A stretch of DNA of 59,181 nt, filler included, from Porpidia crustulata (GCA_964255105.1; 2 parts of 2 records of this genome joined end to end with filler, not necessarily neighbours in it), one strand, 5' to 3'; numbered from the whole stretch's first letter, positions 35,497 through 55,573 are shown. Made by a program: numbers and translations. The notes: generated by a model not told the origin, from the sequence alone.

Positions 35497-36001
35497 TGTA
35501 TGTATGCGTATTCGGACGGAAGGTTATGTAAACCGATTGATAGAGACTGGAAGGACGTGTAATTTCGAAATTCGAGTTGGTTGAGGTTCAATTCTACCGT
35601 AAAGTATGTCCTTTGGGGCCTCTCTGGTGTGATATTTGGCGAATCTCAGTTCAATTGTAGCCACAGAAGTAGAAGTCCATTTCAAAGGGCCATCCTTTAT
35701 ACGCCACGTAGGAACTATGTAGTTGTAGCGATTGGTGAGGTGAGGAGAGATATCGTGTTGTCACTCAAATAATCACGATGTAAACAGAGACTCCTCAGGC
35801 TCGTAAATTGCAAGGGTACGGTTTAGCGCCGGAAATCGGAAATATGGCTCTGGTTTCTTGAGGAACGCGAGACCGTACAGCACCAAACTCCATGCATCAA
35901 TCACCAAGGAATGATAGATGTCCTCGAGCAAAATGCTTTCATCGGAGTAAATTTTTCACCGGCGTGCAGTCGTGGTTCAGGATCAAGTCTATTGAGTCTC
36001 A

Positions 36002-37156
36002 ATGGCTCGTATCAGAGGCTTAGATCCTCGCCAAAAACCGCCCGAGTCTGTAAAGGCCGTTTACAAACATTACGAAAAGCTTACGGCTGAAAGGATTGAT
36101 AGAGACGCTGAGGTCGTCGATTTTGTGCGCGGTCTCAATTGTCCGCAGAGAAGTAAAATTACCAAAGTCGGAAATATGACAGGCTGCAAATTGGAGAACT
36201 CTGGCTCTCGCATTAGCATTGGAGAAGCGTCAGAGAGCGACTATGTTTCGGTTCCAGTGTATCAGCATGAAGGATTACCAGGTGAGAGCCGATACGATCT
36301 ATGGACCCGAGTGTTTGGATTTGATGATGCAGGCCTACACTTAATACCCTCCTTGTTCTCTCAGGAAATGCAACAAGATCTACTGTCATGTTTGATGCAT
36401 GAGGTTCTGGCTGACGAGAGGCACACGAACAATCTGCATTTGCACTATCGAATCCCGTACCATGCTACTCATGACGAGAAAGAAAGTGACCCGCTTCTAG
36501 GGCAAATATCATTCAATGATCACTGTGAGAACGGTGCCTCATTCTTTAACATTCCTCCAGAGTCTCGTGAATCCTTCATTCCCCTTGACCCAAGTATTCA
36601 CAAGCCATTGTCGATCTCTCAATTTCTGCACAAGAAGTTACGATGGATAACTCTAGGAGGCCAGTACGACTGGACTGCAAAAGCATATCCTGCGGAAGAA
36701 CCTCCGGCTTTCCCCAAGAAGATTGTAGCTTTGATAGGCAATCTTTTCCCTAACATGAAACCCGAAGCAGCTATTATGAATGTATATACTCCAGGCGACA
36801 CATTGAGTGTGCATCGAGACGTGAGCGAATACTCTGACAAGGGTCTTGTCAGCATCAGTCTTGGCTGCGACGGAGTGTTCGTTATAGGCCTGGTGGAGGG
36901 AAAGAATAGGAGTCAAAGCTGTCTCACGATTCGCCTTCGGTCAGGCGATGCAATCTATATGAGCGGGCCGTCACGCTTCGCTTGGCACGGCGTCCCCAAG
37001 ATTATTCCAGATACTTGTCCGCAATGGCTGAGAGATTGGCCTGCGATTTCGCCATCCAAACCTTTGAGAGGTGGCCAGCCGAGCAGGTACGAAGCTTGGC
37101 GAGGCTGGACATCAACAAAGCGGATCAACCTGAATGTGCGACAAATGAAAGATTGA
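36002..37156 (+). CDS. AlkB/ALKBH1 (Abh1)-type Fe(II)/2-oxoglutarate dioxygenase
   Basis: KLRWITLGGQYDW, YTPGDTLSVHRDVSE (HxD), LRSGDAIYMSG.SRFAWHGV and RINLNVRQ. Probable in-frame intron at ~36282-36332. Confidence 0.9.
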   Translation: MARIRGLDPRQKPPESVKAVYKHYEKLTAERIDRDAEVVDFVRGLNCPQRSKITKVGNMTGCKLENSGSRISIGEASESDYVSVPVYQHEGLPGESRYDLWTRVFGFDDAGLHLIPSLFSQEMQQDLLSCLMHEVLADERHTNNLHLHYRIPYHATHDEKESDPLLGQISFNDHCENGASFFNIPPESRESFIPLDPSIHKPLSISQFLHKKLRWITLGGQYDWTAKAYPAEEPPAFPKKIVALIGNLFPNMKPEAAIMNVYTPGDTLSVHRDVSEYSDKGLVSISLGCDGVFVIGLVEGKNRSQSCLTIRLRSGDAIYMSGPSRFAWHGVPKIIPDTCPQWLRDWPAISPSKPLRGGQPSRYEAWRGWTSTKRINLNVRQMKD

Positions 37157-37433: not shown

Positions 37434-38933
37434 TCAGGTTGAAAAAACTCTCGATTTCACGCTGTGCCAAGACTCCCTAACAGGTTTGGGAACCTCATGA
37501 ATTGTACAGTATCCACATTTCCCCACTCCTTGGAGCGACTTCCTGGAAGGTTCCATGAGGCATCCCTGTTCCGGTCCGAAGAATGTCGTTTGTGGTTCGC
37601 TGGCTGGAGAGAGATCTTCTAACCGAGAGACCTGCGCTGAAGATGTAACCTTGCTGATACTGATGCTGGTGGTAGTTTCCTCGTGGAGAAAGCTCAACGA
37701 CAAGCCGTCATCGGCCATGCGGCGGAAGTCGTCGGCGGACTCGCTTGTATATTGCAGAAGATCGAGCCCCTCAAAAACGATAGGAGAGTGGAGCTTGGCC
37801 AGTTCGGTAACATTGTCGAGACTGAAACGTGTAATGGGCGTGCCCTTTGGTACTTGAACCTTGAGTCCGAAAGGATACAGGGGTTCCAATTTAACCTGCT
37901 GGTTAGATTTGACCGTTTCATTGGCATCAATAACGCTGTACATTGGTACGTCGGCACACAAAAATTTGAGGCCAAGCTCATCCTCACAAATCTTATAAGA
38001 CACATCACTGTCCGTTGGCTTGCGACCGAGGCTCAAAGAGACATTCGTAATATCCAGATAGGGAGTGCTGTGCCAAGGAGTCACGGGAAACGTGCTATAA
38101 CGGTTGTGAGGCAACAAGGCCACTGAGATTTTGCGAGTATTATCACTCATATGGATCGATAGACGAATGTGTAACGGGGACTTGCTGGCCACCAAGGCGG
38201 AAAAGGCCTTGCCACGTTCAATCATGCCACGCGCCACCCTAGAATTGTACTTCTTGGCAGCACTCTTGCCCATACCCTTCTCGCGAAAGACTGTCGCCAA
38301 ATCCAATTCTAGGAATTTCATATAGCCTCGATACGTTAAAAGGGCATTATTGTCCTTCTTAATGTCTTCATTAAAGTCATACCCTGAGGGAAGGAAAGAG
38401 ACAAAAAGACGTTCCTTGAGCTCTCCAATGCGAGTTGCATACTCTTCAGCAGTAGTCGGTGGGCTCTCGCTACCAACCAATTCAAAGATGTCCGTGAATC
38501 TCAAGTGTTTCAGTCCCAGACTCGCGGTGATACGGCGAAGACCCTTTGCATAGTCGAAAACTTCCTCGTCGGAAACGCCCAGCAAGTCATTGTAACAAAC
38601 ACCGTCGCTAACAATAGTGACGTGGCCACCAGGCGGATATACTTGCTCAATGCCTGCACCGATAGAGTTGAAATGTTGGAGAGACATGCGTTCACCCACG
38701 TCTGGATCGGGGCCGAGGACCTTGGATTCATGATTGGGGCTCTTGAATGGATACGCAGGCACCACCATATTTACGGGTTCTTGTTTAGCAACAAAGCTGC
38801 GCAGTGTGTCCAACATTTTGGGTTCCATCACGTCTTTATACTTATCGCGTGGGCCGCTGATACGGTACGAGGCAATGACCTCAGCGATGCGCTCAACCTG
38901 AGCCTCATCGACGACCGGTCTCGTTGTCGTCAT
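37434..38933 (-). CDS. Isocyanide synthase (Dit1/PvcA family) with a truncated, degenerate TauD-like C-terminus; intronless
   Basis: [51 protein letters not shown] and TPWH are PvcA/Dit1 motifs. The start could instead be 39050 or 39053. Confidence 0.92.
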
Positions 38934-41317
38934 ATTTGAAGTCTTGAAGAAGAGTGTCTTGGTGACACTGAGGCGGGATGGGCCCAACGCCTGAGGAGGC
39001 TCGACAGCCCAAGTCTCAAAGCTGGACGTAACTGTAATGGTGTTGGACATCATAATGGCTCGTTATGATGACGAGGAAGAGGATTGTTGAAGTGGTAATG
39101 AAACAACAACGAGAAGAATCAGAAGTTGGATACCAACACTCATGGGAGGTAAAAGTGGTGCATCTGGCCGAGTACACACTATACTATAAAAATACCAGCC
39201 ATCTTACGGCCTCGTGCGCCTTGCAGTCTACCATGTGGCTTCCTCTCGTGTTCCTTGCATTCTACCCTGTGGCCCGCCTTGTATTCTTTACAATCTACCC
39301 CGTGGCTGTGTCCGATTGAACCAGTGTAAGAGATCACGTTATTCCGCGGTGACCGTAAGCTCCGCGGGCGTCTAATCGCTCGGGGCTTCCATTTTTGGAC
39401 GCTCAAAAGTGAATGGTTTCTCCTCCGGTCTTGGTCCGGCCCCTTTCCGCATTCTCATAAATAGATTCTAAAATTATTCTTTTCTCACAACAGTGAAGCG
39501 AATCTCCAGACTAAGACAACTTCATTGGAGCTCCGCCGCAATTGACCGTTCTTCACTGAACATCTCCGATCACCATTTTCGCCCCCTCTTTGAGAACGAT
39601 CAGCTCCATGTTCGTATCTGGAAGGAAAATCTACCATAGCATGAACATTGCACACAAAAATCATCCAAGTTGACGTTCTTAGGTCTTACAAAGGTGATCT
39701 TGTGGAGATCGATGACTGTGAACGATGGCTTGCCACAGAGACATTCGGCGTGCAAACGGAGCAGACAAAAGCACTTTTCCAAGAAGGCGATGTTCTTAGA
39801 AGAGTAGGGAAGCAAAGAATATCAATAGCTAGTAAACACCACAGCAGCAAAAAGTACTTCATAATGTCGACAGCAGATCTACTTCAAATTTTACTCCGGT
39901 GATTGTGAGCTGAGAAGTACACCACAAGCAAAGCCATGAACCTGTCTTTGCAATTCCTATTTTCGTCGATCTTTCACCGTTTCTGCAGCCAGATACTTAG
40001 CAAAGCAAGAGTAGGGCAAGCGGAGATGGCATTCCTTCCAATATCGCCGTTCAAAAAATCTTCGGTCATGTGATTCCCAATCTAAAGGAGAATTTTGATT
40101 GAGAAACGATGGGATATAAATATCTAGAGATCGAGATGGAGACTGCTTGTGGATATTTGGTCACCCAATAAAATACAATTTGAACGCTGTTGACAGGAGC
40201 ACAAACAGCTTATAGGCGCATGCTGGATCCCAATAAGATACGACTCTACCTATTGTGTAGACTCTCATACCCCTGTTTCATCCACTGTCATCTGGACTCA
40301 ACGCGATTACCGCGGACACTCGTCAGCCTTCTCGTACGCGCCTTGCACCCTTAGAAGAACATCGAGTCTGTTACCTGAGCATCAACCACGAGGTGCGGCT
40401 ATGAGGCTGAAGTGTCGGACCAGCTAGCGCACAAGATTTGAGCCAAGCAAGGAAAGCAAAACCAATAATGGTGAGGGGATCAAGCGGTAACGACGAGGGA
40501 CTGGCGCAAGGCGCTTCTCAAGGACGAGGCGCAGACCTTCCCTCTCTTTTGGTCATGAGGTAGTAGTGATGCTTAGGCCAAGCATTGTCACGGGGCGCGC
40601 CCTCATCGGAAAGCGAGAAATCACGCCATTCGTCGGGTGGTGAACTTTTACCAGTATACGTGATATAGCAAAGTGTGAATAAAGCCTCCGTCGTGACTAC
40701 GAAAGTAGTACTTTGCACTCGCATTGTAGAGGAAATGTGCTCGCGTCTTGACGGGCTTCTCTAATGTCGAGGGACAGAGAAGCTCATATAAGCGTGGGTG
40801 TATGACAGCTGTATGTTGGACTGCTTACGAACCAATACGCCAAGGAGATCGGACAGACAACGTTCTGTCACGCAAGCCTTTCAATTGCGAACTATGTATG
40901 TTGAAAAGCATTCCTTTGATACAGTAATGGCCTGGACAACTTCTGAAATTTGAGCGAGGTACTTTCAGGTATATATTAAGCGCGCTTTGTCATTTACGCC
41001 GACTCCAAATGCTTGTCCGCGGGATGCTGACCTGCGTAGTCCGCGTATATGCGGTCGGCAATCCTTGCCTCCGACGACAGTGAATATGCTGGCGGTGAGC
41101 AATCAAACAATAAAGCCATGGAAATTCGATTTCGACGGGTGAATGCTCGGTGGCGCAGCTGATTGGGCTGGACAGGGCAAGACATAATAATAGGAAGTCA
41201 TGCCATTCATCTTGCATCCCCCCCTCCCCCCTCCAACACTCTGGAAAGCGCACACGACAGTCGGTAGGATACTATCTCTCCATCTACTTTCTCACTTACA
41301 CTTGTGCTCCATTCATC

Positions 41318-43378
41318 ATGGCTATCACAGCACCTACACCAAGGCACACGTTCACTGAGCGTGCTGCAGCGGGCAACCTGAACGACGCTGAGATCCTCAA
41401 CTCCAACAATGCAGCTGGTTCGGATCCGCCCGAAGACTCTGACGTTGTCGTCGCCGGTGGTGGCATGCATGGTCTCATCTACGCCATCCACTCGGCCAAG
41501 TACAAGCCAGGCAACCTCAAGATCTCACTCATGGAAAAGAGCGCCAAGCCAGGATACAAGATCGGCGAGAGCACCCTGCCTCTGTTCTCGTTGTGGTGCA
41601 AGATGCACGGTCTCACAGGCGAGTATCTCCTGCGTCTCTTCGGCCTCAAGGACGGACTGTCCTTCTACTTCCTCGATCGGGAGAACCAAGGCAAGTACAC
41701 CGACTTTGCCAGCAATGGCACGCCAGGCCTCTTTCTGAGCGGCTTCCAAATCGAGCGGACCATCAGTGAGCTTCTCTTGACAGTCCTTGCACAACGGAGT
41801 GGTGTCAATGTATACCATGGAAGGCAAGTCGACTTTAATGCCAGTAAGATTCAAGGTGGTGTCGAGAGTAATAAAGTTGGAATTGCCCAGGGCAAGCATG
41901 ACGGCAAGCCGGCGGTAACGATTGACTCTTCGCTCCTTGTTGATGCGACAGGCCGATTCCGCCAGCTAGCTTCGAAGAACGCTCCTATCCACCGTTTCGA
42001 TGGTTGGAATTACGACGGCTTCTGGGCTTATTTCACGTGCCCGAAAGATGAGAGCAAGATTCCTCTCCGTTTCTACGAAGGTCTACACACCAACCACCTA
42101 TGCTTTCCCGAAGGTTGGGCCTGGGTCATTCGCTTCGCCTCGTGGGAAGGTAGCCCGATTGCCAACTTGATGGACATGATTTCGTATTTGCTCGACTGTG
42201 CCGAGGCTGGGATTCCGGGCGACCAAGTCCCAAGCTCAGAGGAGCTCGCTAAGATGTTTGGACTCAAGTTCCGTTGGCTGACAAGCATTGGCTTTGCCGT
42301 CCGTAACGACGTCAAGTACCCCGAAGACATGTCTCAATACGGAACCAAGGAAGGGGAGCGTAAATTCAACTACTTTGTCCAAAAGTACGATGTCATCAAG
42401 GAGTTCATGACCAACTTCGAGCTGATCGATGACCTCTACGGCCCCAACACGACTTGGTTCATCCGCAAGTCGTTGACATATCAGTCTCCCGTCGTCTCCG
42501 GCCCAGGCTGGCTCGCCATTGGCGACGCATGCGGTTTCACCAACCCGCTCCATTCCCCTGGCATCACGGCCGCCATGTCCACCTCAACGTACGCCGCCGA
42601 GCTCACGCACACGGCCCTCGAGACCGCCCAGAGAGCCGACAACGCCGAGGCCGCCGAGCTCTCGATCCGCAAAACCCTGGCCCCCTACGACGACTTTACC
42701 AAGCGCCTGTACCCGGCGCTCAACCAGATGAACCGCTTCAACTACGTCTGCTTCCGGGAGCCCCGCCTTGGCCCGCAGGTCTCCTGTCTCTGGCAATTCT
42801 TCGCCGGCATCGGCATCCCCGACTGGCAGCTGATCCGACAAGACTACAACCTGACCTTCCAGACCTACGTCCCGCACTCGGTCAACTGGGCCTGGGGCTC
42901 CATGGTCCCCGAATACGACGCCGTCGCCCGCAAAGCCATCAAGCTGATCGCGCCCATCCCACTCGCCGACCCCGTCCCCGACGCCGTCGTGCGCGAGCTC
43001 CTCGCGTTCTCGAACCGCATCAAGGACACCGCCGTGGCGTCGAACCGCTTCAACTTCCGCTGGGACGGCCTGCTGCGCTACTACGACATCTGCCTCAACT
43101 ACAGCGAGGCCAAGACGACCAAGGACAAGTTCGCCCGCCAGTGCGCCGGCTGCGCGTCCTGGCTCGTGCTCCGGCCCGACTGGCGCAAGTGCTACTCGTG
43201 CGGCTTGGAGCGCTCGGCCGAGGAGGCCGCCATCACGTGGAATCCGCCGTTAGCGGTGGATGAGGTTAAGGCGCTCGTGAGGGCGTCGGACGCCAAGCCC
43301 GCTGCGAGGCGGGAGAGGGAGGAAGCCGCGGATGCGGCGCCTGCTTTTGCTGCACTACCGACGGAGGTGGCTGTGTAG
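41318..43378 (+). CDS. Zn-binding flavin-dependent halogenase, MalA-like; intronless
   Basis: GGGMHG Rossmann motif, YKIGES, LFGLKDGL (catalytic Lys), DATGR, the halogenase WxWxI motif as WAWVI, GDACGFTNPLHSPGI and a C-terminal CAGC-x12-CYSC. By recall it is collinear with malbrancheamide halogenase MalA along its length. Confidence 0.9.
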   Translation: MAITAPTPRHTFTERAAAGNLNDAEILNSNNAAGSDPPEDSDVVVAGGGMHGLIYAIHSAKYKPGNLKISLMEKSAKPGYKIGESTLPLFSLWCKMHGLTGEYLLRLFGLKDGLSFYFLDRENQGKYTDFASNGTPGLFLSGFQIERTISELLLTVLAQRSGVNVYHGRQVDFNASKIQGGVESNKVGIAQGKHDGKPAVTIDSSLLVDATGRFRQLASKNAPIHRFDGWNYDGFWAYFTCPKDESKIPLRFYEGLHTNHLCFPEGWAWVIRFASWEGSPIANLMDMISYLLDCAEAGIPGDQVPSSEELAKMFGLKFRWLTSIGFAVRNDVKYPEDMSQYGTKEGERKFNYFVQKYDVIKEFMTNFELIDDLYGPNTTWFIRKSLTYQSPVVSGPGWLAIGDACGFTNPLHSPGITAAMSTSTYAAELTHTALETAQRADNAEAAELSIRKTLAPYDDFTKRLYPALNQMNRFNYVCFREPRLGPQVSCLWQFFAGIGIPDWQLIRQDYNLTFQTYVPHSVNWAWGSMVPEYDAVARKAIKLIAPIPLADPVPDAVVRELLAFSNRIKDTAVASNRFNFRWDGLLRYYDICLNYSEAKTTKDKFARQCAGCASWLVLRPDWRKCYSCGLERSAEEAAITWNPPLAVDEVKALVRASDAKPAARREREEAADAAPAFAALPTEVAV

Positions 43379-43751
43379 ATGATCCGTTGACTTTGTATTC
43401 TAATGACGCTGTGGTCTTCTGATTTCACTGTGGGTGTCCTTAATTTATGCTGTGGGTGGGGATGAATGAATCAACGGTTTATGCGCTTTCGGATTATTGC
43501 TGGTCACGAGATCTGACGTGTGAGGAGGATGGACAGAATGCTGCTTCTCGGGCTTGGCGCGGTTGTATGTAGAATAGAAGCTAGAGAAGAATATGTGAAA
43601 GATGACTACGCTTTCCCGTGAGAAAGTGATAGTCAAGCAATTGGGTCACTGAATAATTTTCTCCATCTTGAAATCACCAAAACCCCCAAATCTATTAGAT
43701 TGACCTCAAAAACTCCCACAACTCTACGCTTCCAATCCTACGCTTCCAATC

Positions 43752-46310
43752 TCACATGCATTGCCGATGCAGCGCCAATTTATTCCTCGCCAGCGGCGAT
43801 GTCGCTTGCAACGCCTCCAACTCGCTCATGACGGTATTGACATGCCACTGCAGCACGCTGACCTTCTCCCGCCCGAACCGGCCCGTCCACGAGCCACTCC
43901 CGTTGCCGTTCGCGGCGTGATAAGGGGGAAAGCTCTCCACCGAGCGTTCGGCATATGGGTAAAAGTCGTTCGCGGAGGCGCTGCCGGGAGACGAGTTGAC
44001 CGCCGCTGCCCTCGACATCGGTCTGGAGGCGCTGGCGTTGGCATTGGCGTTGGCGTGCTTATTCGGTATGAGCAGGCCCAGCCCGTCGGCGGATTGCGAC
44101 GCGTGGAGCAGAACGTGACCGACGAGGGCGGCCGACGACGCGGGCTGGATGACGCGCCGGAAGGTGCCCGGGTAGGGGCGTTTTTCGCCGTTGGCGCCGC
44201 TGGCGAGGTCGATGACCATGCTCCGGGCGCCTTCACCGCCGAGGTTGACCATGTGCGGGGCGCCCATGCCGATGTTGCGGCACTGGGAGAGGACGAGGGT
44301 GCAGGCGTCGATGCAGGCGTCCATGCACATCATGCGCAAGGGCCCGGCGGCGGTGGCGTCGTGCATCAGGTGGAAGGCTTCGTGGCGGAAGAGTTTGAAG
44401 CGGATGAGACCGAGCTCGAGACTGAGGTGGACGTTTTGCACTTGGAGCGCTCGTTGGAGGGAGATCCGGTGCTCGTTTGACGTGTGGCTGCTGCCGCTTC
44501 CGTTGGCTCGCCCTCTTCCGTTGGCTCGCCCTCTTCCGTTAGCACTGCCGTTGACGTTATTGCTTGGACCGCTGTATTCTCCTCCCCGTCCGGCACAACC
44601 ACCGAGCAATTGATAGAAACCCAGCTTGTTACCTAGCGCATCCAGCTCAGAGCAAAGCTCGGCGGCTTGAGCAGGCAAGATGGGACCAGGGCGGATGATG
44701 CAATCCTCTGCCCTACGCGAGAGGCTGGCCAAGGTTAGCGCATATTCTAAAAAGTATCTAGTTTGACTCAATCTCTCCAAGTGTTCCGGTTCCGTTACAG
44801 GCGAGTGCGTTCCATCATCAGGAACCCCTGGAATCTTTGACGGAGGATCGCTGTGCATTTCGGGACGAATGAAGTAGCTGCCATTATGGTAAACGCCAGG
44901 TGACGTCCAGTCAAGAACACATAAAAACGACCAAAGCTGCCATCGCCATTCACGTTCTTCGAGTGGCACATCGTCATCGCAGGGCGAATCCAAAGAAGCT
45001 TCGGCAGCGGAAGAAATCGTATCAAGGTGCAGCTTGAGGTATTCGGAAGGCGCTGCAAACGACTGGGCGGCTAGAAGCAGTAGAATCTTGATGGCCACAA
45101 TCCTCAATAGTAAAGTCGGGGCATAAGTTGAAGCATGCCCTGCTTGTTGGAAATTCGTAAGAGAGTCGGCTGGAAAAGTCTGTGCTCTTGGTAACGCAGA
45201 CGTGGTCGCCTCAGCGCCAGAGGTGAAAGAGTCCAAGTCTAAGTCTGTAATCAAGGACCTTGCCTTTCTCCACAGATCTCTCGCAAACGCGTCAATATCG
45301 ATACGAGCAATGCCGAGCTCCTGTGCTTTGACCGCGTCAAGATTTACAGCAGCAAGACTTACCCATGCAAGGATAAGTGACACCTTGACGTCAAAATGAT
45401 TAAGAGAAACGGGCGAGCCACTATTCTCCACTCCTTTCCGTACTTGCTCCACTTCTTCGAGTTCAGAGACCAATTGGTAAACGTCAATAAATCCAATCAG
45501 CGATGCAGAAGCGTGAAGCTAACGACATTGAACGCCAAAGCAAGCTGTAAGCCAAACTACTGTTCTTTTGATTACACAGCAAAGTTAAACTCACGAATTG
45601 CGAAAACAAGCCCCACAATAAAGGACTTTCAGGAAGCAAGGCAGCAATTCGAGACTGCGTCCATCGTTTCCGATCAGGACTTTGTTGTGGAGAATCTGAT
45701 CCTGGAGATAACATAGAACACATGGTTAGAATGGGCTTCTTCCAGTAGACACTGGTAGAAGAACAACGAAGGGAGCTCGCACTACACCTACCAAGTAATG
45801 GACTTATATCTTGCGGCGTGCTCGGTTTGGCCGAAAGGCCTTCCAAAGATGCGGCTCTTTCCTTATATCGGATAGTCTCAATCAACTCTAAATTAGACGT
45901 TTTGAGCTCCTTGACTACTTCGGTGAGCTTCAAAATTAAGTTTGGAAGCTGTTCGAGGCTTTCTCGATTGTTTTTCCTACTCGAACCGAATGGCACGCCA
46001 GGATCAGTTGTCAAAAATCATTGAACCAAAAATGCCAAGCTCGGACGAGACGTAATTACTCTGGTCTCTGGCCTTCCTCCCAGGTACACGATTGACCTTC
46101 GCCTCGTGCCTGACAAGCGCCACAGGGATCGGAACGATCGCATTTAAGCTTCCGCCGTCTGCACGAGTGGCAGCTTAAAATCTTCTTGTCTTTACCCGTC
46201 TTCTGTGGCGGTTCAGGCTGTGGAGGAGCCGAGGGCCCCTGCGAATGACTGTTGGTGCTAGATGACGATGCTTCTGGAGCTCCATTAGGTACGTTTGTCT
46301 GCATCGTCAT
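43752..46310 (-). CDS. Zn(II)2Cys6 transcription factor 1
   Basis: CHSCRRRKLKCDRSDPCGACQARGEGQSC binuclear cluster and EREWRWQLWSFLCVLDW fungal-TF middle domain. Multi-exon; divergent from the MFS gene. Confidence 0.88.
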
Positions 46311-46725
46311 GTGCAGTGGTGGACTTGAGGTCTGCTTGTTTGACCAACAAGTAGTAAGGCGGATCAATGTCGGTGTTGCGGTGAGGGAGCGAGCAGGTAC
46401 CTAAGTACCTAAGAAACCCACGCGACTTCGTAAGGCTATCCTTATCTTATCTCGTATCTTAGCGCCAATCTGACGCGGAACCGTTTTGGGCTTCGGAGTC
46501 TAAGTGAGAATCCGCGGAGCTTTACAAGTCTCCGTACTTGCATACTCTACTCACGGTAGGCTTACCGTGCCGATGTCAAATCAAATCACAACAAAGTAAT
46601 TTAGGCCGGTGCCTTCAAAACGCCCACCTTCATCCCCCACACTTGATCCAACTTCATCTGGTACAGTAGATTCTTTTCCTACCGCCGGCGTCCACTTTGA
46701 TCCTCTCCACTTTGCAGAGGTCATA

Positions 46726-48330
46726 ATGTCTACTACCGGCGGATCTCCAATTCTACACGATGGAGCCCTCAGTAAAGAGGAATCAGAGCGATCCGATAAC
46801 ACCGTTGTAGGGGCTGGTGGCGCTGGCGAGCCGGACGCAATTGCTTCGCCTTCCAATTTTTCGTCTCCACTTCAAGAGGGTGTCTTTATCTTTGTCATTG
46901 GCTTGTCCCAGCTCTTTTCAGTCGGAGGTCTTGGAAATGCGGCATATTCGGTGGAAGAGATCGGTCGTTCTCTCAACGCGACCAGCAACGGACAAACGTC
47001 GTGGTTCCTGGCAGCATACTCGCTGGCCGGTGGTGTCTTTGTCTTGATCACTGGACGGCTGGGAGACCACTTCGGCCATAAGTATGTCTTCATGTTCGGA
47101 TGGTTCTGGTTGGCCATCTGGTCTCTTATCTGCGGCTTCGCACACAATGTCATCCTCTTCGACTTTGCCCGAGCAATGACTGGTATCGGCAATGGCGCCC
47201 TGGTACCCAACTCGTTTGCTCTCTTGGCGCGAGCGTTCCCGCCCTTTTCGACCAAGAAGAACATTGCATTTGCTTTTCTTGGCTTCTGCGCTCCTTCGGG
47301 TTACATCTTTGGTGGTCTCATTGGTGCTGCATTTGCTCAAAAAGTTACCTGGCAATGGGGCTTCTGGTTCTGGGCGATTGGCTCCCTATTCCTCGGCATT
47401 GCGACTTTTGTCATTGTTCCACACCGCATTGGCTCCCCATTGCCTGGACTCAGTTTCAAGCAATTTGACTACATTGGCACCTTTCTCGGCCTATCCGGTC
47501 TCATCTTCTTTGCCTTTGCATGGAATCAAGCATCTGTGGTTGGCTGGCAAGTGCCTTACACGTACGCCCTTCTCATTGTCGGCATCGTCTTCATCGTGGC
47601 CTTCGCCTATTCTCAGTCACACGCCTCGGCACCAGTCTTACCCAACACGCTCTGGACACGCAAAGGATTCTCTCCTATCGTGATAGCGATGTCTTTTGGC
47701 TGGATGTCCTTTGGCATTTTCCTTTATTACACGACCATCTTCATCCTCACAATACACAAGGAAACCCCTCTCGCTGCCGTAGCAGAAATGACCCCTCTAG
47801 TCATCGGAGGCATCTTTGCCACGGCATCGGTCGGCATTTTCATTCAAAAGGTTCCAGCTCAGTACATCTTTGGCGTTTCCATGTTCTCGTTCTTCTTCGG
47901 TAACCTAATGATGAGTTTTGCCGAGTACTCCAAAGTCTATTGGGCCTTTATCTTTCCAGCTTGCTTCTTCGTCGTCGGAGGACCGGACCTTTCCTTCGCC
48001 TCGTCTGGTATTCTCATCTCCAACGTGGTCATGCCAGAGGAGCAAGGTGTGGCCGGGTCGTTCATCTCAACGGTGGTGCAATACTCGATTGCCGTCGGCC
48101 TCGGTATTGCTGCCACGGTAGAGTCGCACGTCAATAAGGGTGGCCGCGATCTTGTTCGTGGGTATCGTGGTGCCTTCTGGCTCGGCATGGGATTTGCAGC
48201 TGTCGCCTTCTTTGTGGTTGTGATTTTTGTTCGTGATCACCGCTTCGATGGGGTGAAGAATGCCGAGAAGGAGGTCAACGGTAGTCATGACACCATTGAA
48301 GAGGCTGCAGCAGTGAAAGGCGACTTCTGA
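46726..48330 (+). CDS. MFS drug:H+ antiporter, DHA2 (Atr1-like, ~14 TMS); intronless
   Basis: SWFLAAYSL, motif A GRLGDHFGHK, ARAMTGIG, FDYIG and EEQGVAGS, with many hydrophobic segments. Confidence 0.92.
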   Translation: MSTTGGSPILHDGALSKEESERSDNTVVGAGGAGEPDAIASPSNFSSPLQEGVFIFVIGLSQLFSVGGLGNAAYSVEEIGRSLNATSNGQTSWFLAAYSLAGGVFVLITGRLGDHFGHKYVFMFGWFWLAIWSLICGFAHNVILFDFARAMTGIGNGALVPNSFALLARAFPPFSTKKNIAFAFLGFCAPSGYIFGGLIGAAFAQKVTWQWGFWFWAIGSLFLGIATFVIVPHRIGSPLPGLSFKQFDYIGTFLGLSGLIFFAFAWNQASVVGWQVPYTYALLIVGIVFIVAFAYSQSHASAPVLPNTLWTRKGFSPIVIAMSFGWMSFGIFLYYTTIFILTIHKETPLAAVAEMTPLVIGGIFATASVGIFIQKVPAQYIFGVSMFSFFFGNLMMSFAEYSKVYWAFIFPACFFVVGGPDLSFASSGILISNVVMPEEQGVAGSFISTVVQYSIAVGLGIAATVESHVNKGGRDLVRGYRGAFWLGMGFAAVAFFVVVIFVRDHRFDGVKNAEKEVNGSHDTIEEAAAVKGDF

Positions 48331-48906
48331 GATGATGTGACCTTCGGGTAGCTTACAATTTTGGTTCCATTGACCTTGTCTACACTCCGCACGACTCGAC
48401 GCTTCGTCTAGAAATAGGTTAGCTTGCAGCAACAACAAACATATTACTCTAGAATTTCCAGACAGACATGCTATGGAAATTACAACTGCCGCAACAACTT
48501 GGATCTCACGGCAGGACACCTTACACTCTTTGACATCTGAGCGTCACTCCCCAGCCACAAGAAGCCTCATTCAAAAGAGAAGCGCATATCCAATTCTGCG
48601 GCACTAGCTACTTAGTGGTCTAAGCACAATTGGCGCACGTCATCGCCGTAACATCCCCTCCCCCTCAATGGGACGGCTAACCGACTTCATGAGGCTAGCC
48701 CTAACCCTAGATTAGCCGTCTCTCTCTGGCTCGTATCGGCTCGGTCCGCGGACGCTACAAAACTCCACGGATTCCGGCCAAAGTCCGGTTGCTTGGCACT
48801 CTATATACATACCTTACTTGAGAGATAAGGAAGTGTGATGGTTGTTGGTACGAGTCTGAATTTGCACTTTAGATTGTGAAGTCAAAATAAGCAGAAAAGA
48901 TCAAAA

Positions 48907-49713
48907 ATGCCGACACACCGCATCCTCTCACTGGTGTACGACGGGTTCGAGGCGCTAGATCTCTTTGGGGCCCTGGGTGCCATCGTCCCACGCAGCGACT
49001 ACTACACCCTCAAGCTGGTTAATATCCACAATCTGGGTGCACCGCACGGGCTGGAATCCTCCATCAGGAATGGTATCGGCACTTTGCCCAGCCTTTCATT
49101 GGCCGAAGCGCTCAAGGAAGAGGGGCAGATTGACACCCTCTTTATCCCTGGAGGGTTCGGTATGTTGCCGTTGGTTTGGGAGCCCTTTTCGCTGCAGCAG
49201 ATTGGTCAGCTTGTCGACCGTGCCGCCAACGTCTTTACCGTCTGCACTGGATCCATCCTGTTGGCTGCCACCGGTCGGCTCGACGGTCGCAAGGCAACCA
49301 CAAACAAGCGCCTTTATGAGGAGATAACACCAAAGTGTACGTGTTGTGGGTCACCGTAGCTGTCGCTTTCGTTCACATTGACCTTACATCTAGACCCTGG
49401 CGTCCAATGGCAACAGCGTGCTCGCTGGGTACAAGAGGGCAAGTTTTTGACCTCTTCGGGGGTGACGGCGGGTATTGATGCCGCTTTTGCTTTCATATCC
49501 AACACTTGGGTTTCCCCCGAGGATCGTAAAGCCAACCCCACTCCACAACAAGCAAGTGCCGAGGGAGATGCAACGGCTATCCCAGGCTTCAACAAAGAAA
49601 AAGCACTGGGACATGCCCACTTTGTTGCATTTGGTTTGGAATACCGATGGCACATGGATCCCGCTGACGATCCATTTGTCGATTCGCCTAAAGGCACTAA
49701 TGGTACTCTGTAA
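48907..49713 (+). CDS. DJ-1/PfpI (ThiJ) family protein, isocyanide-hydratase-like
   Basis: YDGFEALDLFG, LFIPGG, nucleophile elbow VCTGS, GRLDGRKATTNK and RWVQEGKFLTSSGVTAGIDA. Intron 49337-49393. Confidence 0.88.
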
Positions 49714-49988
49714 ATACGTTTCTCTGAAGTTTCACAAATTAGTTCTATGTCTAACCAAGAAACACTTGAAAGATGTGGCTGTATATTTTCTTTTTTGCGT
49801 TGCCCTAACATGATCTGCATTCAACAAATTGACGAGGATGTGACGTACCTAAAAAGAGAGAGGAACGGTGACTTTGACAACCGCTCTACTTGCATAGACT
49901 CAAAGAGAGGCGACGAGTCGTTTCATTCGCACTATCTACTATTTCGTAAGACAGGCCACGAGAATTGCTGCGTGCCAAAGGACCCAAG

Positions 49989-52775
49989 CTACAGGGAGGA
50001 GCGGCTACCGTCACCCGAGGCATAGGTTAATAGAAACTTGGCTGCTACATATGCATCAGCGCTTGAAGGTGTCGTTGCAGCTTCGCTTCTCCCGCTCAAC
50101 TTGGTAGGTCCGCTCGCTATAGACGAAGGTGACGCATGTATGACCCGAGTGCCATCGATATTGCTATACACATCGCCAAACTCCGGTGTTCCGAAGCTGC
50201 TCAATGACTGCGCCGCGCCGGAAGACTGCCTAAGTGGTACCAAGCCGGATAGGTTTTGCATGTCTGCTGTAGCCGAAAAATAACCATTCTCGGTGGGAGA
50301 TTTAGGAGTAGCGATCTCCAAAGATTGCCAAAAGTCGTAGCCCGGATCGTTGGAGAGCATTGGTAGCACATCAAAGTCTTGGAATCCACCAGTAGTGGTT
50401 GCTAAAGGCATAGACATGTCCAGAGCGAATATCGAGTTTAGATTGGCTTCCTCCGCTGTCGTACTTGCGTTTAGGGTATTTCCTTGAAGACTGTCCAAGG
50501 TATCCATGACTTTGTTCTTGAGTGATTTTCTTGCATTGCTGTCAGATCTTACTCCTTGTCCTCCTTGTCCTCCTGGACGGTTTCCTGTTGATTTTGCTCC
50601 ATTGCCTTCTTCGTTGTTGTCGGACTCCTCTTCCTCTAGCCTCATCAAGGCTTCGAGTGCAAGAAAACTTCGCCGAGTAGAGGCTTTGTCTTGTTCTAAT
50701 TGAGGGTCTTGTAGGGACGGTGGACCTTCTAAACCGTTTCGAGTCCGTAATAGCTCGATAGCTTCCCGGATCTTGTCTCTTGTCATTAATCGACTTAATT
50801 GGGCACCTGAACAATCTACACCTTTGTGCTTGGATGAGAATAGCAAATCAAGGATCAGTACAATAGCGGCGTTGAACAGCTGGGTTTCGCTAGTGGACAG
50901 AGAACCACAAACAGCGCACCGTGCTTGTATCTGCCCCTGAGAGCTGATAATGTTCTGTGCTAGCAGCTGACAGGATGAGCGGCCATCCTGTGACGAGAGA
51001 CTAGCCCGATGAAGTCTCAAGAAAAGACTCCATAGCTGCTGATGTAACATCCATCGCTGTACAGGTATTGCTGCCATGGGACCTGTTGAAGTGAGTCCCA
51101 TGGTGCTTCCCAGTCTAAAGTAAGACGGCAATCCAGCAACAAAGTTTTCATACTGTTTGTTCAGATGGTGTCGCATTTTTGCACCTTCAGTTGTCTTTTC
51201 TTGTCGTGGAGCTTGGCTAAAAGGACCGCGCAAGTCGATGGACTCGCGCGCGAAAGCTGCTATTTCTAAAGCGTGGACTGTATATGAGAGCATAGTGAAC
51301 TCGGATCGAGGCCGCTCAGTAATGTAGCCATGGACATTGATCGCCAATGTTGTGGGACAGAGATCGTCATCATTGATATGCAACGGCACCCGAGTGTTGA
51401 ACTGTGAGGGATGAATACTATAGTAATCCAGCGCTTGTCCGCGTGACCAATCTCGCATCACAAGTGCCCACCTATATTTCAAACAAATCAGAGATCAATC
51501 TCTAAAGCGAGGGTTTTGCGTTCAAATGACTTACCAGATACGAACACCGATTTCTGTTCGTACGTGAGGCGGCTCCGTCGACATTAACGGGCTATCTTCA
51601 GGGAAAGAGATGGGCGATGCAGACGCTACCAATTTTGCGTCACCCAGTCGATGTAAACCTAGTTTCTGGGCTCCAGAAATTGCGTTGACCAAGATAGCAT
51701 CGAGCGCTAAGGATCCCCCTTGGCCTTGGAGCAAAAGCATGATGGCAGCTTGTAGACTGGCAATTGAACCACAAAATAGTGAAACCTCTCCTTGAAGGCA
51801 ACGCAAGGCAAGTGACCTCCATGTCCTGGAGTGTACATCTGACGCTCGAACTTCTTCCACATAAAGAGTCAGAGGTGAAGGAGACCAGCCAAGTAGAGAT
51901 GGTGTGGGATGGAAGGCGAGAGCGAGCACGAGCTATAAAAGAGAACATGAGCGTACGCTTCATGTGCGGTATAGTGGAATACGCACCGCCAAGAGGTGAC
52001 AGGCAATTGCATCCATGGAAATCGTATTAGACAGGGCCGTGACTTGTGCTTCTGACGAAGCAAGACTCAAGCAGCCACAAAATGTTTCTGCATGCTTCAT
52101 AAATGTCGGTGTGTGTACAATGTTGCCCAGAGGACCTTGACAACGGGTAACGAAAACTTGGTAGAGGAGGCGAATCATGTCTAAACCGGGCATAGCATCG
52201 ACAATTTCTCGAATCAATGCAAGTTGTACACCTTGTCTTTGTGGATTATTGGCATTTAACCAGTACACATTGGGGTACTCTGGTGCCACATAGGATAATG
52301 TCTGTTTAGAGACAGCGGACGGGTAGGCGTTGGTGCGAGATGTTCCATCGACAAAGTCTTCGAGGACCTGCGCAGCCTCATCTGCTTCTGTTCCCTGGTT
52401 TTCCAATGCATTGCTGATAAAACAGACACATGTCAATGAGAGGTTCGTGAGGAGCCATCTTTGAGCAGAACTCACGTCTCCGGGTCCCTTCTACCACTGT
52501 TATCCGTCTTTGCCCTTTTTACCCTTGGCTGACGTTCGTCTTTGGTACAAAGATGGCCGACATTGCGCTTGACACATTCCATCTATATGAACAAGATCAG
52601 TCACAAAGTTGATGGTGCATCGAAACCGGCGACATACACATGGTTCCTCTCTGTCACATTTCAGCTTGGATGCTCTGCATCGAGCACATGACTGAGTAAA
52701 CTTGCGCACACCAGACTCCGAACTGAAAGAGGCTTTGGTGCTGGCGTGCCCGTCCTTTGAACTGTGGTCAACCAT
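49989..52775 (-). CDS. Zn(II)2Cys6 transcription factor 2
   Basis: CARCRASKLKCDREEPC|MECVKRNVGHLC, AQKLGLHRLG, EIGVRIW|WALVMRDW and PLHINDDDL fungal-TF domain. Multi-exon; divergent from ICS-TauD. Confidence 0.88.
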
Positions 52776-53638
52776 CGTTGGTGGGCCATGAGTATTGGGC
52801 AAGTGCGGCGTTCCCGTTCAGCTAGCAAGAGGCCGGACGAGCCGAAGGACGCATGGATGAATTAAGTCCATGGACATGTACATAGTAGCACGGGTTGGAT
52901 ATGGTAGAGTAGTTCGTGGATAGTGTTATTGGGGCTTTGCCCTGATTGGTGGACAGCCTAGATAGATGGATATTCACACTAACTGACTTTGCTCATTCAT
53001 TCAACCTTGATCTCAACGTGTCTATTATATCATGAAGCATAAGTAACCTAATCATCTAGATCTACGACGCTACGACTTGAATTTCAATTCAGACGGTTCT
53101 ATATGGTTTAAAGATAAATTCGAAATCCATGAGTGACGTTGCTCATCAAGCAATGCCCTGGTCTATGAATAACCGACCTATCCATAGAAACACCCGTCTG
53201 AGCTGTGAATGGAAGTTATCTAAGAGTTTTGTGCAATATGTGACATGTGCATCGTCCGCTGCTGATCAGGTGCCAAATGTGCGACCCAAACCCGCACATA
53301 AATCCACCTCCGTCGGAGTCCGTGTGTGGCTATACAGCGATTCTACCAACTCCGCCGCCTCCGATTCAATATTGATGGAAGAGAGTATGAAAGCATACTC
53401 GGACGGAGGAATAATTCACGCTCGGATCTCCTCATGACTACACCGTAAGCGTCTGAGTGGTGCGGAGCAACGTGAAGTGTGATCGAGAACCCTCTTTCGT
53501 GTCTGAGGAGAAGTGTCAAGTACTACTGACATCTCAAGAGATAATAATGAGCTAAGACGAAGACATGACCCTCCTGAATCAAATTTGAGTATCGATCCTT
53601 TTCTTCCTCAATATCTCCCTACAATCTTTCTCGACAGC

Positions 53639-55573
53639 ATGCCTTCCGCAACCTACATTCCTCCTACAGAGACCCAAGTCTCCAAGATCCTTTCCATCAT
53701 CTCGGCCTACCGCCACCGTTCAGTCAACGTCCCAGACCGCTTTGCCAAATTTGTTCCACAGCTCCAGAAGCAATTAGCCGATACTGTCTCCAAGAAGGAG
53801 CCTGTGAGTTTCGTCTTGCCGGCTTTTCCTTTCAAGGCACCAGCCGAGGACAATAAGAGCAAGACCCTAGGCTCGTTGCCTGATAAGGCGGAAGAAATTG
53901 CTTTGCAAACGCTCGATGGGTTTGCCGATTCCATTGCCGAAATCTACGAGGGTGGCGCCAAAGTTGTGATTGTATCGGATGCTTCCGTCTATGGAGGTAG
54001 AGAAAGCATAGTATCCCTTTTGAAAATGATCGAGTTGCCAACACTGCTGTATAGACATTCTACAAGTCTCAGACGCCGACGCTTTTGCTTACCAACACGA
54101 ATTGCGAAAGCTTGCCTCGTCCCTTGATCTCAAGCACCTCGAATTTGTACGTCCAGGTACGCTAGCCGGCATCGTTCCCAATGATGCACAGATGCTCGGG
54201 GAGTACTCTACCCAGGTACAACAAACTCGCAATCTTCTCGATGGCCCTCTTGCTCAACAAATTGAGGCAAGCGAGGATGAAAATGTGCAAGCAACGAGTA
54301 AGCACTACGATACGGCTCTTCCAAAAAATGAAGATCCAGAGGCTTTCAAGGCCGCAATGCTGAGGCGAGGAAAGGTACAAGCTTCGTATTGATAGCCAGT
54401 CATATATTTGCATGTTGCTGATACTATACACTGCTTACTCAACAGGCCTACGCCAAGCTAATTGCTTCGACATCACGATCGTCTATCCGTCTGTCCATCC
54501 ACGAGTCGAACAACGTCGGCAAAATAACTCTTGATCTCTTTCCTCCATCGACCAACCTAAGCTTTCTCACACCGTGGCATGGGGCCGTCGCGATCCTTGC
54601 GGATGCAAGCGTGCGTGTCGTCGATGCATCGACAGTAGACAAGGTCAAATTCGACGTTATAACCAATGCTCAAGGACAACCTTGGCTGCTACGTGAAAAA
54701 TCTGACCTCTTCTACTTCCCCGGCATGATACTGGACTTTGAACCGCTCTACCCATGTGGTATGCTTGTCAAGCCGAGGGAAGGCCACGATCCCTATAAGT
54801 TCGAGGATGTGGACATGCAGCGCGTGCGCCGCCTTGCCCTTTCTACTGCACCCTTACTTCTTCGAGGGTTCACCATGAAGGTGCAAAAAGAAGTCTTCCG
54901 CGCCAAAGCTGGCGAGCTGGGCGAAATTCAAATGTGGCCGTTCGGCGATATTCTCGAGGTTCGGGAGAACGCCAGCTTTAACATGAACAACGTTCTCACC
55001 AACGAAGCCATGCCTTTCCACTACGACGGCGTTTTCAAGACAATCAAGGACGAAACGACCGGCGAACCGATTTCCGTGCCGCCGCTGTTCCAAATGTTCC
55101 GTAACCGTGCCGCCGACCAGCAAGTCGGCGGCCTGACCCTCTTCTCATCATCCCGCAACCTCCTCGCTCTCCTCGGCCCAGACACTATCCCTCTCACCGA
55201 CCTGCGCAAACTCAAATGGAAAACCTTCACCGCCGTCAACGAAGCCTTCGGCGGCACTGAGCTGCTCCTACCCTTCATCGCCTCCCACCCGGAAACGGGC
55301 GCCGACACCTTTCGCTTCCACGAGCCCTGGCCCGCCAGCAAGTGCATTGGCGCCACCAGCGAACCAACCCTCATCGAGGTGCCGGGCCTGCCCGATGCCG
55401 AGAGCGTGGTGCTGTGCGACAGACTGACCGCGCTCATGTACGACCGCCGGGTGGTGCTGCGTCACCAGTGGAGCGAGGGAGATTTCATCTTCAACGACAA
55501 CGCCACGACGCACCATACGCGGACGGCGTTTGAGAGCGGTCATCGGGAACTTTGGCGCGTGCACGTTAACTAG
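53639..55573 (+). CDS. Isocyanide synthase-TauD/PvcB Fe(II)/2OG dioxygenase fusion (XanB-like architecture)
   Basis: ICS motifs VLPAFPFKAP, LGSLPDKAEE, IVSD, IRLSIH and TPWH, then TauD motifs LLLRGF, MPFHYDG (HxD), GGLTLF and HQWSEGDFIFNDN..HHTR. Introns 53997-54054 and 54375-54445. Confidence 0.92.

Follow-up and report, generated by a model that had tools for sequence, protein, structure and literature searches.

Predictors of biosynthetic gene clusters (BGCs) that search for core enzymes miss isocyanide clusters, and products are known for two of the three isocyanide synthase (ICS) clusters of Aspergillus fumigatus. Sections of a 2024 review of A. fumigatus BGCs name isocyanide products for the xan and crm clusters only. 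The A. fumigatus cluster designated '4G', or ICS4G, has the genes icsA (AFUA_4G01370) and icsB (AFUA_4G01420), C6 factors, transporters and a ThiJ/PfpI gene; it went undetected by BGC predictors, and the passages describing it give no product (Lim 2018, mBio, PMC5974471). In a later survey (Nickles 2023, PMC10153163), Table S4 lists for the cluster 6_Aspergillus_fumigatus an ICS fused to a dioxygenase (DIT1_PvcA+TauD, here called ICS-TauD), a HAD hydrolase, Zn_clus, DJ-1_PfpI, DIT1_PvcA and a glutathione S-transferase (GST), and further DAHP_synth_1, Trp_halogenase (7e-13), Zn_clus, MFS_1, FAA_hydrolase and RPE65. Here we describe seven adjoining genes in a stretch of 59,181 nucleotides from Porpidia crustulata (GCA_964255105.1; parts of two records joined with filler), called the window throughout. 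We propose that they represent a lichen-fungus version of the ICS4G icsA/icsB cluster of Aspergillus section Fumigati/Clavati and Penicillium, working in the way outlined below, and we put the probability of this reading at about 0.7.

The part types of all seven window genes are also listed for A. fumigatus ICS4G. Two of the genes encode an ICS, in one case as the ICS-TauD fusion and in the other as a single-domain protein (ICS1), and both are orthologous to the Aspergillus/Penicillium pair (67–81% identity, with 71–81% to A. clavatus; clade support 100). Clustered with them are a protein with a Trp_halogenase domain, a DJ-1/PfpI protein, two Zn_clus proteins and a transporter of the major facilitator superfamily (MFS). 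Since all seven part types have already been recorded together in the ICS4G family, the combination is not new. The preliminary description of this locus had implied that it was, but the same set was drawn in 2018 (PMC5974471) and tabulated with Trp_halogenase in 2023 (PMC10153163). What differs is the gene order and the host, here a lichen-forming Lecanoromycete. In Table S4 of the 2023 survey, Trp_halogenase appears in at least 125 rows. Among the first 30 of these, E-values near 1e-13 belong to A. fumigatus, A. clavatus, A. fischeri, P. polonicum and P. antarcticum, and the matches of Fusarium and Verticillium are weak (about 5e-5). Most of the same parts, DAHP synthase and/or GST included, also stand in the rows of the A. 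clavatus and P. antarcticum clusters (in each case the first 15 of 22). The survey text describes its gene cluster family GCF 1 as having two ICS backbones and calls the ICS monodomain, which is no obvious fit to the ICS-TauD fusion of the window (PMC10153163).

Orthology of the isocyanide synthases

In our ICS comparison, A. clavatus and A. fischeri proteins stand in for those of A. fumigatus. At the protein level, exon 3 of the ICS-TauD gene shares 81% identity with A. clavatus P0383, 78% with A. fischeri P0388 and 71–77% with Penicillium proteins, two of which carry the source name 'Isocyanide synthase A'. ICS1 shares 71% identity with A. clavatus P0154 and 65% with the P. oxalicum 'Isocyanide synthase B'. 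Its orthologue set comprises 50 proteins down to 42% identity; the next matches, at 36% or less, are other ICS-TauD proteins, including one named XanB. The two members of the A. clavatus pair lie on contigs of equal size (1035561 bases).

The same relationship emerges from a tree of 31 ICS-TauD rows, obtained by a quick search and supported by the SH-like approximate likelihood ratio test (SH-aLRT) only. The window protein and four Teloschistales rows form a group (support 89) whose sister consists of Aspergillus/Penicillium proteins (97), and both fall within a 19-row clade with a support of 100 and a stem of 0.74. The XanB-named sequence is placed in the other main clade. A recent horizontal transfer between lichen fungi and Eurotiales is not claimed, as the two groups are sisters, without nesting. 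An ICS-TauD with 74% identity to that of the window (P0208) also comes from a record under the name of the fern Adiantum nelumboides; its place within the fungal clade points to fungal DNA in the plant assembly.

Matches to proteins of known structure agree with these assignments. ICS1 matches the isonitrile synthase 9DHM (1.4e-27) and PvcA 3E59 (2.5e-26), and it is collinear with a 537-residue relative (P0122). Within its C-terminal 200 residues just the segment at about 390–432 aligns, and it does so with the first ~45 residues of the TauD part of ICS-TauD; this makes ICS1 a single-domain ICS that retains a remnant of the dioxygenase, which looks truncated and non-functional. The dioxygenase part of ICS-TauD matches 7TCL (4.9e-22) and PvcB 3EAT (5e-17), and alignment to both retains the HxD...H iron ligands and the C-terminal Arg of PvcB/IsnB-type Fe/2-oxoglutarate (2OG) dioxygenases. 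Thus, the bacterial PvcA/PvcB and IsnA/IsnB pairs and the window have in common the ICS domain (3E59, 9DHM) and an Fe/2OG dioxygenase (3EAT, 7TCL) with its iron ligands kept. Unlike the bacterial pairs, the window has both fused in one protein, with an identity of ~30% as read from printed alignments, and it also carries a second ICS without a dioxygenase.

The DJ-1/PfpI protein matches 3MGK (2.2e-12) and the isonitrile hydratase 6NI4/3NON (1.4e-9), and the Cys of its 'CTGS' nucleophile elbow aligns with that of the hydratase. The preliminary description had named this protein an isocyanide hydratase. Its family and the aligned Cys agree with that name, but it describes a likeness to isocyanide hydratase, and the activity itself is putative.

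Linkage of the halogenase to the isocyanide synthase genes

We compared 11 metagenome loci carrying the halogenase, in which the 10-kb flanks end before ICS-TauD. The order ICS1–halogenase–TF1–MFS–DJ-1–TF2, where TF1 and TF2 denote Zn2Cys6 transcription factors, is collinear in 8 of the 11. The other three comprise two loci that are cut at contig ends yet consistent, and a 2.6-kb contig with the halogenase only. Ten of the loci, at 87% halogenase identity, count as one observation because they probably come from one species. In the related loci, three open reading frame (ORF) pieces of TF1 are collinear and 67–83% identical, the MFS protein is 78–82% identical, and four ORF pieces of TF2 are collinear. 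The DNA alignment with a relative stops about 70 bases past the ICS1 stop codon. On the ICS1 side, the flank of the relative (L007:1-5300) has genes for cation efflux, for an intradiol catechol dioxygenase (Dioxygenase_N/C) and for a protein with DUF7924, and no match to the AlkB-like gene and the kinase of the window was found in any of the 11 related loci. This flank differs while gene order holds, and so it marks the edge of the cluster. The proposal of a discrete isocyanide-type cluster in the preliminary description is thereby supported, and we consider it very probable that the seven genes are a real unit and an orthologue of the ICS4G cluster family.

Locus tags of named fungi are in line with this arrangement. 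In Letrouitia, ICS-TauD and the halogenase have neighbouring tags (L6R41_006245/006246), and in Blastenia the same two genes are Q9170_003126/003132. The tags of ICS1 and the halogenase are N7537_005895/005897 in P. hordei and N7493_001735/001730 in P. malachiteum, and the two ICS genes of P. ucsense are PECH_003735/003740. For other records we took equal contig size as a proxy for the same contig, which for contigs of megabase size means the same scaffold and not adjacency, as in Parajaminaea; by this measure, 12 of the 50 ICS1 orthologues share a contig with a listed halogenase match. Eight ICS-TauD matches can be tied to a halogenase, seven by an equal-sized contig and that of Letrouitia by its adjacent tags, and all three genes occur on three contigs (78539, 42778 and 28330 bases). 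Conserved linkage of the halogenase to the ICS genes, whose absence the preliminary description had named as a ground for abandoning its proposal, is thus what we found. Taken on its own, the statement that the halogenase belongs to the isocyanide pathway appears likely to us.

Outside these groups, a single contig of 9.9 Mb carries all three gene types in the basidiomycete Parajaminaea. Calcarisporiella thermophila, a fungus placed outside Dikarya, has three ICS-TauD paralogues, two of them with locus tags three numbers apart, as well as a MalA-like halogenase (65%) (P0411, P0413, P0222, P0052).

The MalA-type halogenase

The Trp_halogenase match of the window protein spans its N-terminal 75 residues only (the first 75 of the model). 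Against MalA/MalA' in PDB (5WGR-5WGZ) it aligns nearly throughout (E=0, 1053–1056 bits, residues 5–661 with 2–649), and it is 65% identical to a Malbranchea protein (P0041) over the whole length. In the MalA alignment the FAD-binding GxGxxG, the catalytic Lys108 and the WxWxI segment are all present. Lys108 is a signature of flavin halogenases.

Results on halogenase homologues refer to the best 120 of 191 matches, and the alignment consists of the window protein and the 109 of these 120 with at least 600 residues (110 rows). Lys108 is a Lys in 99 of the 110 rows, the window included. The C-terminal Cys4 zinc site (Cys597, 600, 613 and 616) is complete in the window, and its positions are retained in 108–109 of the 110 rows. 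From these residues the halogenase looks catalytically competent. In 11 of the 110 relatives, His takes the place of the catalytic Lys108.

The best matches (73–87% identity) come from the Teloschistales lichen fungi Xanthoria, Usnochroma, Wetmoreana, Blastenia, Gyalolechia and Letrouitia. Judged by these matches alone, the window would most likely derive from a fungus of that order, with Teloschistaceae as the best-matching family. In a 41-row tree, a 'MalA core' clade (support 100) contains the window halogenase along with MalA, Penicillium proteins linked to ICS genes, and a group from Sordariomycetes. MalA/MalA' of Malbranchea aurantiaca, the late-stage indole halogenase of malbrancheamide, resembles the window protein in Lys108, WxWxI and the C-terminal Cys4 zinc site. 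Their settings differ: MalA sits in a prenylated-indole cluster with a nonribosomal peptide synthetase (NRPS), whereas the window halogenase sits in an ICS cluster.

Points against the proposed reading and alternative explanations

A number of observations weigh against the reading of the region as a working lichen version of ICS4G. The linkage counts depend in part on the contig-size proxy described above. A literature search found no product, expression or enzyme activity reported for any member of the ICS4G family, and according to the 2018 text icsA and icsB were silent under every condition tried (PMC5974471). The Aspergillus/Penicillium versions list 3-deoxy-D-arabino-heptulosonate 7-phosphate (DAHP) synthase and GST, and that of A. 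fumigatus also a haloacid dehalogenase-like (HAD) hydrolase, whereas none of these in-cluster enzymes was found in the 96 window ORFs scanned; therefore, the products need not match those of the Aspergillus/Penicillium versions. Furthermore, the best 120 of 191 halogenase matches contain no Aspergillus protein, so that orthology of the Aspergillus cluster halogenase rests only on a Pfam match of like strength in Table S4. The names are also in conflict: sources give 'A' to the 601-residue ICS-TauD and 'B' to the single-domain protein, but in the text of Lim 2018 (PMC5974471) IcsA is the single-domain protein and IcsB the ICS–dioxygenase. Because of this disagreement, we name the ICS genes by architecture.

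Other such observations bear on specific alternatives. The one that survives best, although we find it unlikely, is that the halogenase is a bystander serving another pathway, for example one leading to the chlorinated anthraquinones reported from Teloschistaceae, and that the cluster makes a non-halogenated isocyanide. Close relatives of the halogenase (66–74% identity) indeed occur in Sordariomycetes without a listed ICS1 orthologue, and Malbranchea, with MalA in its indole-alkaloid cluster, likewise has the same subfamily without an ICS1 orthologue. The halogenase tree leaves the ICS-linked halogenases unresolved as a single lineage, and in Calcarisporiella the halogenase (contig of 305921 bases) is apart from the ICS-TauD contigs (58277 and 1570740 bases). 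A bystander is nonetheless at odds with the finding that halogenase and ICS genes lie side by side, or nearly so, in members of two fungal classes, in Teloschistales and in P. hordei and P. malachiteum, and with a gene order that is held while one flank changes. Moreover, Trp_halogenase is listed within Aspergillus and Penicillium ICS clusters in Table S4 (PMC10153163).

Still less probable, in our view, is that the 'halogenase' performs other chemistry, for example as a flavin monooxygenase, or that the cluster is an evolutionary relic without a product. All seven reading frames are intact, Lys108 and the zinc site are conserved, and the short branches across classes (78–81% ICS-TauD identity) argue for purifying selection and not decay. 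The silence of the cluster in the sole organism tested, as described in the 2018 text (PMC5974471), and the non-conservation of Glu494 of MalA would suit such a reading. This residue is Glu in 3 of the 110 rows, and in the window it is Ile (MAFFT alignment) or Gly (HMMER alignment). The window halogenase and its close relatives, unlike MalA, have a 5–7-residue insertion at the Glu494 loop. According to work by Fraley and colleagues from 2017, Glu494 of MalA reportedly contacts the indole substrate. Because it is not conserved, MalA says little about the substrate of the window halogenase. Inside its family, Glu494 is nearly unique to MalA, and it looks MalA-specific rather than family-defining.

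The last alternative, a variant of the xanthocillin (xan) cluster giving a xanthocillin-like, Tyr-derived product with a halogen in place of the methyl decoration, has very little to commend it: like the A. fumigatus xan cluster, the window is built around an ICS-TauD, has a DJ-1/PfpI protein resembling a hydratase and its own transcription factor, and is without a polyketide synthase (PKS), NRPS or terpene core (xan content from the text of Lim 2018, PMC5974471), but it is very probably not a modified xan cluster because its ICS-TauD clade (support 100, stem 0.74) is apart from the XanB-named sequence in the tree, XanB-like proteins are just ~33–36% identical to ICS1, the window ORFs scanned include neither a dimerisation cytochrome P450 (XanG) nor a methyltransferase (XanE) while a second ICS and a halogenase are present, and the same text keeps 4G and xan (5G) distinct. 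For this reason we depart from the xan-like framing of the preliminary description, in which the halogenase and second ICS replace the P450 and methyltransferase; the ICS-TauD of the window belongs to the separate and tightly conserved clade of Aspergillus/Penicillium proteins with the source name isocyanide synthase A.

Gene content and gene models

Stop-to-stop ORFs of the 36–57 kb region were scanned against Pfam, with a family match in 10 of 19; in the rest of the window 11 of 26 scanned ORFs matched, and the whole effort covered 96 ORFs. The scan confirmed that the seven adjoining genes have the expected domains and that the cluster begins after a housekeeping block, both as given in the preliminary description. 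Coordinates are collected in Table 1.

Table 1. Features of the isocyanide synthase gene cluster and its immediate neighbour (positions counted from the first letter of the window)
Feature	Position	Strand	ORF or introns	Pfam match
ICS1, single-exon isocyanide synthase, 539 residues	37434..39053	-	ORF 37434-39062	DIT1_PvcA 8.1e-79
ICS1–halogenase divergent intergenic region, 2.26 kb	39054..41317	.		no Pfam-matching ORF
MalA-type flavin-dependent halogenase, single exon, 686 residues	41318..43378	+	ORF 41114-43378	Trp_halogenase 1.3e-12
TF1, Zn2Cys6 transcription factor 1	43752..46310	-	Zn_clus ORF 46056-46400	Zn_clus 3.4e-7
MFS transporter	46600..48330	+		MFS_1 3.7e-30
DJ-1/PfpI protein, 249 residues	48907..49713	+	ORF 48880-49359; intron 49337-49393	DJ-1_PfpI 1.7e-11
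TF2, Zn2Cys6 transcription factor 2, multi-exon	49989..52775	-	Zn_clus ORF 52500-52817	Zn_clus 0.0026, below cut-off
ICS-TauD fusion, 601 residues	53639..55573	+	ORF 53507-55573; introns 53997-54054 and 54375-54445	DIT1_PvcA in three pieces, TauD 3.4e-33
AlkB-like 2OG-Fe(II) oxygenase	35996-37156	+		PF13532 5.1e-34

The open reading frames of all seven genes are intact. The preliminary description was right about the presence of the ICS-TauD gene but placed its start at 53081 instead of 53639. One combination of GT–AG introns alone yields 601 residues, the size of the orthologues, and A. clavatus P0383 matches across the three exons at 72–82% (tblastn). The frame of the DJ-1/PfpI gene is open after splicing. 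TF1, which is modelled as multi-exon with approximate intron positions and its start Met set at 46310, has a complete Cys6 motif. In TF2, the CX2CX6C...CX2CX6C motif becomes intact only once a 55-nucleotide intron (52637-52583), which splits the zinc cluster, is spliced out. The first Met of the long MFS ORF is at 46726, and a further exon upstream is possible. G+C content is 0.54–0.58 across 42001–46000, which covers the halogenase and TF1, against 0.45–0.50 in most of the window.

The 96 window ORFs gave no match to PKS, NRPS or terpene synthase domains, in agreement with the preliminary description, and likewise none to P450, methyltransferase, GST, DAHP synthase and HAD hydrolase domains. 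None of the 25 longer ORFs in the 3.6 kb beyond ICS-TauD and in the 2.26-kb ICS1–halogenase gap has a Pfam match, and five of them lie in the gap. In the gap itself, 26 ORFs of 47–93 residues gave nothing better than an E-value of 0.1, and a search there for remnants of GST or DAHP synthase found none. Within this gap, positions 39381–40634 align with intergenic DNA of the relative at 67–72% identity over ~1.2 kb. This conserved DNA could be shared regulatory DNA or a non-coding transcript. A comparison of promoter words across four promoter regions gave two 8-mers present in three regions and none longer, which is too weak to use.

The block upstream of the cluster encodes a DEAD helicase, an ATR-type kinase, a fatty acid hydroxylase, NCA2, AAA ATPases, CAP and a protein kinase, as identified by Pfam. 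The AlkB-like gene and ICS1 are convergent, with 280 bases between this gene and the ICS1 stop codon, and the AlkB-like gene is probably outside the cluster because it is absent from the matching flank of related loci.

Proposed pathway

The steps of the pathway that we propose are inferred from homology. Acting on an aromatic amino acid (Tyr or Trp), the ICS domains would turn its α-amino group into an isocyanide; an aromatic substrate is suggested by the DAHP synthase that sits in the Aspergillus versions. The intact Fe/2OG TauD domain of the fusion would then carry out decarboxylative desaturation to an aryl vinyl isocyanide, in the manner of IsnB/PvcB. ICS1, having lost its dioxygenase, may feed the same step in trans by supplying extra isocyano acid, or it may activate a second amino acid. 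The MalA-type halogenase is predicted to chlorinate or brominate the electron-rich phenol or indole ring of a free intermediate via a Lys108 chloramine, drawing reduced flavin from a reductase encoded elsewhere. The DJ-1/PfpI protein may convert the isocyanide to an N-formamide, either for self-protection or as a step of the pathway. The MFS protein would export the product, and the two Zn2Cys6 factors would switch on a normally silent cluster.

Since the lichen form is without a P450 or an NRPS-like coupling enzyme, its product would most simply be a monomer. From its gene content, the window cluster can reasonably be predicted to yield a halogenated aromatic vinyl isocyanide or formamide, and we would give about even odds to an aromatic end product that bears a halogen and is an isocyanide or a formamide. 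More tentatively, and with rather less confidence, we suggest that a halogenated aromatic vinyl isocyanide, or the formamide derived from it, may be a product of Teloschistaceae lichen fungi, and that the same compound class could be the silent one in A. fumigatus.

Implications

In view of these results, the kind of cluster found in the window is known but uncharacterised. Our literature search found no characterised fungal pathway with this combination of genes, as the preliminary description had also stated. Literature on halogenated or chlorinated isocyanides proved to be cyanobacterial work and inorganic chemistry only, and searches combining lichens with isocyanide synthases gave general mentions only, with no lichen isocyanide reported. 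The genome table of the 2023 survey (PMC10153163) has eight rows of Lecanoromycetes and none of Teloschistales, and work on Teloschistales (Llewellyn 2023) mentions neither halogenase nor isocyanide. What is new, then, is the presence of the cluster in lichen-forming Teloschistales, absent from that genome table; its compact seven-gene lichen form, which does without DAHP synthase, GST and HAD hydrolase; and the linkage of halogenase and ICS genes conserved across classes.

ICS metabolism is thereby extended to lichens. The family, which combines two ICS genes with a MalA-type halogenase, has been kept almost whole in lichen fungi as well as in Aspergillus and Penicillium, and its compact seven-gene version leads to a concrete chemical prediction. 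If this prediction is true, the product would be, as far as our literature search shows, the first known lichen isocyanide and also the first fungal isocyanide to carry a halogen. The unusually high identity of ICS-TauD between Lecanoromycetes and Eurotiomycetes (78–81%) would then reflect a role of ecological importance, for example in metal binding or in antimicrobial defence in the thallus.

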